44,376 nucleotides of DNA from a virus (taxonomy: Duplodnaviria; Heunggongvirae; Uroviricota; Caudoviricetes), in the IMG/VR virus record IMGVR_UViG_2541047881_000004, positions 1-44,376 of that record; one strand, 5' to 3'. Positions 40,761 to 40,805 of the stretch are shown here, piece after piece. A model generated the notes under the pieces. It worked only from the letters and a program-made list of their open reading frames with translations, was not told where the DNA came from and searched no databases. Each line of letters opens with the position of its first letter. Position 1 is the stretch's first letter. The translations under genes and the position numbers were made by a program.

Positions 40761-40805
40761 GCTCTTTAAACAACGTCGACTCTCGACTACGTGGCTGAAA
40801 AGCCA
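40761..40805 (+). promoter_or_regulatory. nutL: boxA-like GCTCTTTAAACAACG (40761-40775) and boxB hairpin TGGCT-GAAA-AGCCA (40792-40805)
   Basis: Between the pL-like promoter and N; matches the nutR candidate in sequence and spacing. Confidence 0.55.

Follow-up and report, generated by a model that had tools for sequence, protein, structure and literature searches.

Putative paired nut sites with a GNRA-tetraloop boxB and a spacer hairpin in a lambdoid prophage

Introduction

The complex of the N protein with boxB RNA is a textbook model for peptide-RNA recognition and processive antitermination, and N-dependent readthrough drives early gene expression in Shiga toxin (Stx) phages. Here we describe a composite element that occurs twice in a 44,376-nucleotide (nt) stretch of viral DNA (Caudoviricetes; IMG/VR record IMGVR_UViG_2541047881_000004, positions 1 to 44,376; hereafter the window). 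Its two copies are very probably the nutL and nutR sites of the N-dependent antitermination system of a lambdoid prophage and, judging from sequence comparison, belong to a distinct N/boxB class.

The solved N-boxB complexes comprise those of lambda (pentaloop), P22 (GACAA pentaloop) and phage 21 (hexaloop), and in the P22 boxB an extruded C contacts the peptide (PMC12550061). Mutational profiling of the lambda complex points to the G, the purine at the third position and the closing U-A pair as important, and the extruded base makes no contact with N (PMC12027372). The nutR of H-19B forms two hairpins, N plus NusA protect its spacer and boxB in footprints, and nutR/tR1 is a Rho-dependent terminator (PMC3526286). 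The N protein of epsilon34 was proposed to be one that 'likely has a novel BoxB specificity' (PMC2629481). The GenBank record of that phage annotates TCGCTGAAAAGCGA, the same 14 nt as the boxB of the window nutR, as 'putative NutR - boxB', so that the element has already been noticed at the level of annotation. No description of the tetraloop class as such, of its spacer hairpin or of a rule that links motif and loop was found in the literature searched, which does not include several key older papers.

Results

Both sites have the same layout. The nutL site (40761-40805, plus strand) lies between a pL-like promoter on its 5' side and the N gene and consists of boxA GCTCTTTA (40761-40768; GCUCUUUA as RNA), AACAAC (40769-40774), a spacer hairpin GTCGA-CTC-TCGAC (40775-40787), a TACG linker (40788-40791) and boxB TGGCT-GAAA-AGCCA (40792-40805). 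The nutR site (38144-38100, minus strand) begins 11 nt past the stop codon of cro and consists of boxA GCTCTTTG (38144-38137; GCUCUUUG as RNA), TAACAAC (38136-38130), a spacer hairpin GGAC-ATTC-GTCC (38129-38118) that is the same as in the nutR of 933W and H-19B, a TACG linker (38117-38114) and boxB TCGCT-GAAA-AGCGA (38113-38100). The two boxB RNAs, UGGCUGAAAAGCCA and UCGCUGAAAAGCGA, differ in one stem pair by a compensatory change. The initial annotation, which had been made from the sequence alone, placed the same composite at 40761-40805 (+) and 38100-38145 (-) and noted the common context CUACGU.GCUGAAAAGC.AG; both claims were borne out, and the two variable positions of this context are complementary (G..C in nutL, C..G in nutR). 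The composite pattern GCTCTTT-N(1-6)-AACAACG-N(10-30)-CTACGTNGCTGAAAAGC has exactly two matches in the window, nutL and nutR, and none in 100 dinucleotide-preserving shuffles. A GNRA hairpin by itself is unremarkable, as the window contains five with a 5-bp Watson-Crick stem (both strands counted); the signal is the composite together with its placement.

The boxA 8-mer of nutL, GCUCUUUA, is the exact core of the rrn boxA, and that of nutR is GCUCUUUG; the published sequences are UGCUCUUUA for rrn and CGCUCUUA for lambda (PMC2724277). Such a near-consensus boxA hints at the use of NusB and S10. The isolated boxB hairpins have folding energies of -7.1 and -6.5 kcal/mol (z -3.0 and -2.0); neither is followed by a U-run, so they are not terminators. 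Neither site matched any Rfam family. The initial reading as nut sites is supported by position, orientation, boxA, boxB, the partner N and the homology of nutR to its counterparts in 933W and H-19B. The 933W record annotates both nutL and nutR, and its nutR reads GCUAUUUUCACAAU-GGACAUUCGUCC-UACG-UCGCU GACAA AGCGA-GUCCCAA... From the spacer hairpin through boxB into tR1, the 933W/H-19B nutR and the window nutR are the same nearly base for base, except that the loop GAAA has one base fewer than GACAA. The window nutR is thus closely homologous to a validated nut site, and one base is changed in the loop that N reads. GACAA boxBs of the P22/H-19B type are absent from the entire window.

Two further candidates were rejected. 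The GAAA hairpin at 6726-6739 (minus strand) has a U-run behind it and is a terminator. The octamer CGCTCTTA at 41571-41578 (plus strand), an exact lambda-type boxA located 3' of N in the pL operon, about 45 nt before a terminator-like hairpin at 41623-41640, is followed by that hairpin and not by a boxB, and is therefore probably a chance match.

The 'short spacer' of the initial annotation exists as an interval but is not unstructured: in both sites the stretch from ...ACAAC to UACG is taken up by a second small hairpin. The spacer hairpins of nutL and nutR are unrelated in sequence, a first hint that structure and not sequence is conserved. Covariation was analysed in 27 distinct tetraloop-class sites chosen by sequence anchors alone (ACAAY, G...C, UACG, GNAA). 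RNAalifold predicted exactly two hairpins, with compensatory changes in 6 of 9 pairs and no broken pair. All cells of the paired columns were paired (100%, against 73.5% in shuffles), the covariation score was 0.66 (0.13 in shuffles) and was reached by none of 500 shuffles, and registers slid by 1-3 columns gave at most 46% pairing. In boxB, the outer pair occurs as U-A, A-U or C-G and the second pair as G-C, C-G or A-U; in the spacer stem, three of the four pairs covary, with three pair types each (stems GUCGA/UCGAC, GGUGA/UCACC, GAUUC/GAAUC, GAAGA/UCUUC, GGAC/GUCC and GGCC/GGCC). The covariation shows that both hairpins are conserved as structures, and at both window sites the boxB stem-loop typical of lambdoid nut sites is present, with a GAAA loop.

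The loops of the two hairpins behave differently. Spacer loops are free in sequence and length under the same arginine-rich motif of N (CUC, ACAC, AUUC, UGGAU, AGUGAU and others), whereas the boxB loop of the tetraloop class is GAAA or GCAA, both of which fit GNRA, with only A or C at position 2 in scans that were blind to GNGA loops. The spacer hairpin GGAC-AUUC-GUCC is unchanged across both motif classes described below and therefore cannot be a specificity determinant. The spacer hairpin of H-19B has reportedly been proposed to act as a 'reducer' of the effective linear distance, and the equivalent dyad is said to be deletable with little effect; antitermination in H-19B is likewise said to be independent of boxA, NusB and S10. 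The spacer hairpin in both window sites corresponds to this 'reducer'-type architecture.

The N gene (40904-41176, plus strand) encodes 90 amino acids (aa), begins 190 nt 3' of the -10 hexamer of the pL-like promoter and has the ribosome-binding site GGGAGGA. A match to PF25694 (N_peptide) spans residues 1-90 (E 3.4e-32). The arginine-rich motif GTAASRRRARRANLQS comprises residues 9-24 (nt 40928-40975), and the C-terminus LPNVALYAAGYRKSKQLTAR is shared with the N proteins of P22 and H-19B; a PDB sequence search with N gave no match even at E 10. Identical or nearly identical N proteins are encoded by the Stx phages VT2-Sakai, Nil2, 2851, 1717, YYZ-2008 and Morioka Stx1 and Stx2-II, and also by many non-Stx lambdoid phages; the identity is complete for VT2-Sakai, Nil2, 2851 and 1717. 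An intact module of nutL plus N occurs in 759 of 5426 complete Escherichia coli genomes (14%), and inducible Stx phages such as VT2-Sakai have it too. In E. coli genomes, the RefSeq label of this N is 'hypothetical protein', and the inspected phage records of this N type carry no nut-site annotation. The lambdoid prophage next to icd in E. coli CFT073 (L342:15372-15644, minus strand) encodes the same 90-aa N type with one substitution (R47L), again under the RefSeq label 'hypothetical protein'.

The start codon of N is annotated in two ways. Several GenBank records give a 114-aa open reading frame (ORF) from an ATG equivalent to position 40832, 27 nt past boxB; the 90-aa start at 40904 is favoured by other records and by the Pfam match, which covers the short form (residues 1-90), and is preceded by GGGAGGA. 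GenBank notes also term the window-type N 'similar to HK97 N'. An assignment as 'HK97-type N' was rejected, because the N of HK97 is a 127-aa protein of the H-19B/933W type with GACAA boxBs. The DNA match to HK97 covers cI, gp48, gp49 and cII, and not N; HK97 is the top DNA match of the window because the gp49/gp48 segment is HK97-like, though N is not.

Motif and loop were compared in reference phages and in the loci recruited by two reciprocal IMG/VR scans, one per loop type in the CUACG context (about 340 loci). Across these loci, motif class and boxB loop type match without exception. At nutL, 20 distinct motif variants of the form G[ST][AS][AS]xRRR[AED]xR[ASLK]..[LV]Q, which include the window type, the STEC1589/POCJ13 type and the epsilon34/g341c/Si3 type, all occur with GAAA or GCAA. 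Five variants of the form RRRE[RL]LK[AV][KQ]A, those of 933W and HK97 among them, all occur with GACAA, apart from the Oslo/SPN9CC subtype, which has GUCAA at nutL and GACAA at nutR. GACAA was found only with RRRERLKAKA-type motifs or with the N of P22. An intermediate motif, GSSAARRRERLKAQAIAQ, whose N-terminal half is of the tetraloop class and whose C-terminal half is of the pentaloop class, goes with GACAA, which places the discriminating residues after RRRER. The loops of nutL and nutR on the same contig were GAAA and GAAA in 113 contigs, GACAA and GACAA in 65, GCAA and GCAA in 5, and GCAA and GAAA in 4; no contig combined a tetraloop with a pentaloop. Additional scans with N as query recruited 80 near-identical loci among viral contigs, which are informative for spacer-loop variation alone, and only 4 loci among genome contigs, which are uninformative.

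A comparison of epsilon34 with SPN9CC separates the motif and the loops from their background. The two phages agree almost completely in the nutL leader and fully in the nutR backbone, and they have the C-terminal two-thirds of N in common, whereas the arginine-rich motif and both boxB loops differ together. A co-adapted specificity module made up of motif and loop would be expected to give this pattern. The N proteins of SPN9CC (L092) and Oslo (L101) carry the arginine-rich motif GTSRARRRERLKAKALA, which is almost of the 933W type. Their nutL boxB, GCUCC-GUCAA-CGAGC, has a loop closed by a C-C mismatch, and their nutR boxB, UCGCU-GACAA-GGCGA, a loop closed by U-G; the two phages represent a divergent sub-class of the pentaloop type.

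The final 9 kb of the window form a lambdoid immunity and early region, with genes assigned by the ORF list and Pfam, and the first 25 kb contain lambda-like head and tail genes. The minus strand encodes a DnaB-like P (35343-36719; ORF list), O (36716-37537; Pfam Phage_rep_O), cII (37718-38014; Pfam Phage_CII) and cro (38156-38371; Pfam HTH_3, named cro in near-identical phages), which is the first gene of the pR operon and has nutR just 3' of its stop codon. The plus strand encodes cI (38440-39141; helix-turn-helix (HTH) plus Peptidase_S24) and two ORFs that resemble gp49 and gp48 of HK97 (39426-39833 and 39821-40471; ORF list and similarity), neither of which has a Pfam match. These homologues are placed between cI and pL, in the position of rexAB in lambda, and are followed by a G+C-rich hairpin flanked by A/T runs (40474-40497), which looks like a bidirectional terminator.

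The pL-like promoter (TTGACC-17-TACTAT, 40686-40714, plus strand) was found by a consensus scan and lies 47 nt upstream of nutL. The leader ATCAGCAGGACGC behind it is common to the N leaders of lambda and P22, and from the likeness to leaders after the annotated lambda oL operators and the P22 early-left promoter, the start of the pL transcript is predicted near 40721 (ATCAGCAGGACGC). Between nutR and cII, the tR1 region contains the hairpin AUGCG-UUUCCA-CGCAU (38053-38070, minus strand; -9.6 kcal/mol, z -3.9), whose flanks are almost identical to the H-19B-type sequence downstream of nutR in 933W. Two intrinsic-terminator-like hairpins with U-runs are predicted by a consensus scan 3' of N in the pL operon (41475-41496 and 41623-41640, plus strand) and are presumed targets of N antitermination.

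Both loop-type scans also recruited a satellite-like island (IMG/VR UViG_2563366943_000008; L201:1500-1835), and the same array was present in enterotoxigenic E. coli (ETEC) H10407 (L341:9020-9620; NC_017633.1, 338.6-339.2 kb). The island resembles P4 and PICIs (phage-inducible chromosomal islands) and has, in H10407, the order P4-type integrase, promoter-like site, nut array, 15-bp hairpin, AlpA-like HTH gene, antirepressor, ash and a DUF5906 primase-like gene. The promoter-like site (TTGATA-16-TACTAT) is located 5' of the array, which packs four to five nut-like elements, all on the same strand, into about 320 nt between integrase and AlpA-like HTH gene. The elements comprise one tetraloop-class site (boxA, hairpin GAAGAU-GGA-AUCUUC, UACG and CAGCU-GAAA-AGCUG), two GACAA sites, of which one copies the H-19B nutL type, and the exact boxB of the lambda nutR (GCCCUGAAAAAGGGC); the boxA-like sequence GCUCUUUAACA adjoins several of them. 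The 15-bp hairpin (-20.8 kcal/mol, z -6.3) is followed by UUUGG and lies 5' of the HTH gene. Altogether, 32 complete E. coli genomes carry the whole array.

The side-by-side presence of three loop classes is consistent with three separate specificities. It suggests that the satellite senses the N proteins of helper phages, and the N of any one of three lambdoid helper classes may be able to turn on the island through the array. The alpA gene of PICIs is switched on by the helper phage via an unidentified factor, and nut sites are not mentioned in this context (PMC6092414; PMC11773190). Helper-phage N as a general inducer of E. coli PICIs was considered and rejected, because the int-alpA intergenic region of EcCICFT073 (L343:19160-19524, E. 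coli CFT073), a PICI that has been studied by experiment, has no boxB hairpins; the nut array is thus a trait of a single island family. The same EcCICFT073 region contains six close xACAAC repeats (GGACAACG, GAAACAACG, GACACAACG, CGAACAAC, GGAACAAAA and GGAACAACG).

Discussion

The observations fit a mechanism in which the nut RNA, made from pL or pR, would present a near-consensus boxA as NusB/S10 site, a small hairpin, the invariant UACG and a 5-bp boxB that is closed by U-A and carries a true GNRA tetraloop, GAAA, on top. The spacer hairpin would shorten the effective linear distance from boxA/ACAAC to UACG-boxB, in keeping with the 'reducer' idea. The N-terminal arginine-rich motif GTAASRRRARRANLQ would bind the tetraloop boxB, and NusA, probably also NusB, S10 and NusG, would complete a complex that rides on RNA polymerase. 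The modified polymerase could then pass tR1 upstream of cII-O-P (the hairpin at 38053-38070 and its flanks) and the terminator-like sites at 41475-41496 and 41623-41640. We infer the binding of N, the need for Nus factors and the orthogonality to the lambda (GNRNA) and P22/H-19B (GACAA) classes. The initial annotation had proposed an N/boxB pair of different specificity; the perfect co-variation of motif and loop across phages argues for it, and this comparison is its sole basis.

Several points weigh against the proposed reading. The minimum free energy fold of the full 61-nt context pairs boxA with the 3' arm of boxB and contains no boxB, and single-sequence folding by itself gives the proposed structure no preference. 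In part of the covariation sample, the inner three boxB pairs and the G.AA loop were preset by the pattern of the scans, which leaves the two outer pairs of boxB and the spacer hairpin as the only unbiased positions. The epsilon34-type nutR lacks a recognisable boxA, from which it follows that boxA may be dispensable, as in H-19B. The core RRRxRRA..Q is common to the window motif and lambda N, and because lambda N leaves the extruded fourth base uncontacted (PMC12027372), cross-recognition of GAAA by lambda N is plausible.

These last points lead to an explanation that keeps the nut sites and gives up their separate specificity: lambda-type motifs would already read the bare GNRA fold, the pair would cross-react with lambda N or H-19B N, and the split into tetraloops and pentaloops would stem from shared ancestry or NusA contacts instead of discrimination by N. 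The extruded base reportedly serves NusA recognition and not N binding, which would suit this explanation, as does the motif core shared with lambda. It is further favoured by the features required for lambda binding (the G, the purine and the closing U-A, with no contact of N to the extruded base; PMC12027372), of which the closing U-A pair is retained in the tetraloop class. Yet the motif class agrees perfectly with the loop type at nutL as well as at nutR over mosaic backgrounds, no contig has mixed loop types, epsilon34 and SPN9CC differ by a joint swap of the motif and both boxBs, a lambda-type boxB and a tetraloop boxB are kept next to each other in one island, and Trp18 of lambda N is replaced by Glu in the window and by other residues in relatives. 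We consider this explanation rather unlikely.

It is very improbable that the hairpins are not targets of N at all and instead represent leader structure (attenuators, or RNase III or other processing sites) or what is left of H-19B-type nut sites after the loss of one loop base had disabled them. The window nutR does equal a functional H-19B-type nutR minus one loop base and, taken alone, could resemble a knock-out, and the hairpins lack the U-run of a terminator; but the same 'deletion' occurs at nutL and nutR, always with a changed motif, in hundreds of loci with at least 20 motif variants, compensatory changes keep the stems, and an intact module is carried by the 759 complete E. coli genomes as well as by inducible Stx phages, VT2-Sakai for example. 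Equally improbable is a spacer hairpin that serves as the true N-binding boxB in place of the GAAA hairpin. This proposal can point to a conserved, covarying hairpin between boxA and the GAAA hairpin, but the loop of that hairpin varies freely in sequence and length under the same motif, and GGAC-AUUC-GUCC serves both motif classes and hence carries no specificity that tracks the motif.

The reading as nutL and nutR of a distinct N/boxB class can be extended, tentatively, to a fully orthogonal fourth mode of N-boxB recognition after those of lambda, P22/H-19B and phage 21. A lambda-like motif without Trp18 would read a bare GNRA tetraloop, and the satellite-like island would carry one nut site per class to sense an active lambdoid helper. 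Since the tetraloop offers no extruded base to NusA or to the peptide, assembly of the complex would need another basis, with the obligatory spacer hairpin and the invariant UACG as candidates.

A widespread natural class with GNRA tetraloops provides a test of whether the extruded base serves discrimination by N or the recruitment of NusA, and the tetraloop N/boxB is one more candidate for an orthogonal peptide/RNA pair in tethering tools. The results also bear on annotation, as this N is labelled 'hypothetical protein' and its nut sites are unannotated in the inspected phage records, and on the biology of Stx phages, whose early gene expression is driven by N-dependent readthrough. The class is found in 14% of complete E. 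coli genomes, the Stx2 phage VT2-Sakai included.

The initial annotation had suggested a comparison with the nut sites of phage 21, P22 and H-19B. The near relatives are H-19B, 933W and HK97 on the one hand and epsilon34 and g341c on the other, whereas P22 and phage 21 are more distant. H-19B, 933W and HK97 share with the window the layout (boxA)-ACAAY-spacer hairpin-UACG-boxB and, in N, an MxR+TxFxG N-terminal motif, an EAISSxxLHRPTxSR motif and the C-terminus. They differ in the arginine-rich motif (SRSRRRERLKAKALA versus AASRRRARRANLQ in the window) and in the length of N, since the 90-aa protein of the window lacks a central block of about 29 residues and shorter segments of the 127-aa protein of 933W. 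The boxA of the window is near the rrn consensus, whereas the nutL of 933W has no boxA and its nutR has GCUAUUUU. Epsilon34 and g341c are of the same tetraloop class (arginine-rich motif of epsilon34, AAGRRRERRAALQ), although the N of epsilon34 has 120 aa and an H-19B-like central region, and its nutL spacer hairpin is GAUUCA-GUGA-UGAAUC. The gp24 protein of P22 is nearly identical to the window N in its C-terminal 20 residues, and P22 also has the boxB stem type xCGCU/AGCGx and a consensus-type boxA; it differs by the absence of a spacer hairpin, by the GACAA pentaloop with its third base extruded and by the motif AKTRRHERRRKLA.

Lambda and the window agree in the placement of nutL after pL and of nutR after cro, in a boxA upstream, and in a boxB with a 5-bp stem closed by U-A and a GNRA loop fold. 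In lambda, however, the loop is GNRNA with an extruded fourth base, whereas the window has a true tetraloop of 4 nt between a pairable U and A, with no base to extrude, and a spacer folded into a hairpin. The central and C-terminal parts of the window N are unrelated to those of lambda N. The arginine-rich motif had initially been called distinct from that of lambda N; it is indeed non-lambda and has Glu in place of Trp18, but the N-terminal core RRRxRRA..Q, found in lambda (QTRRRERRAEKQAQW) and the window (ASRRRARRANLQSQE; AGRRRERRAALQNAV in epsilon34), makes it closer to lambda than had been implied and the closest to lambda among the known classes. The remaining biology is as expected for a lambdoid prophage, and the system itself is a variant of a known nut system, with a true GNRA tetraloop and a reducer-type spacer, that is very common in E. 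coli prophages.

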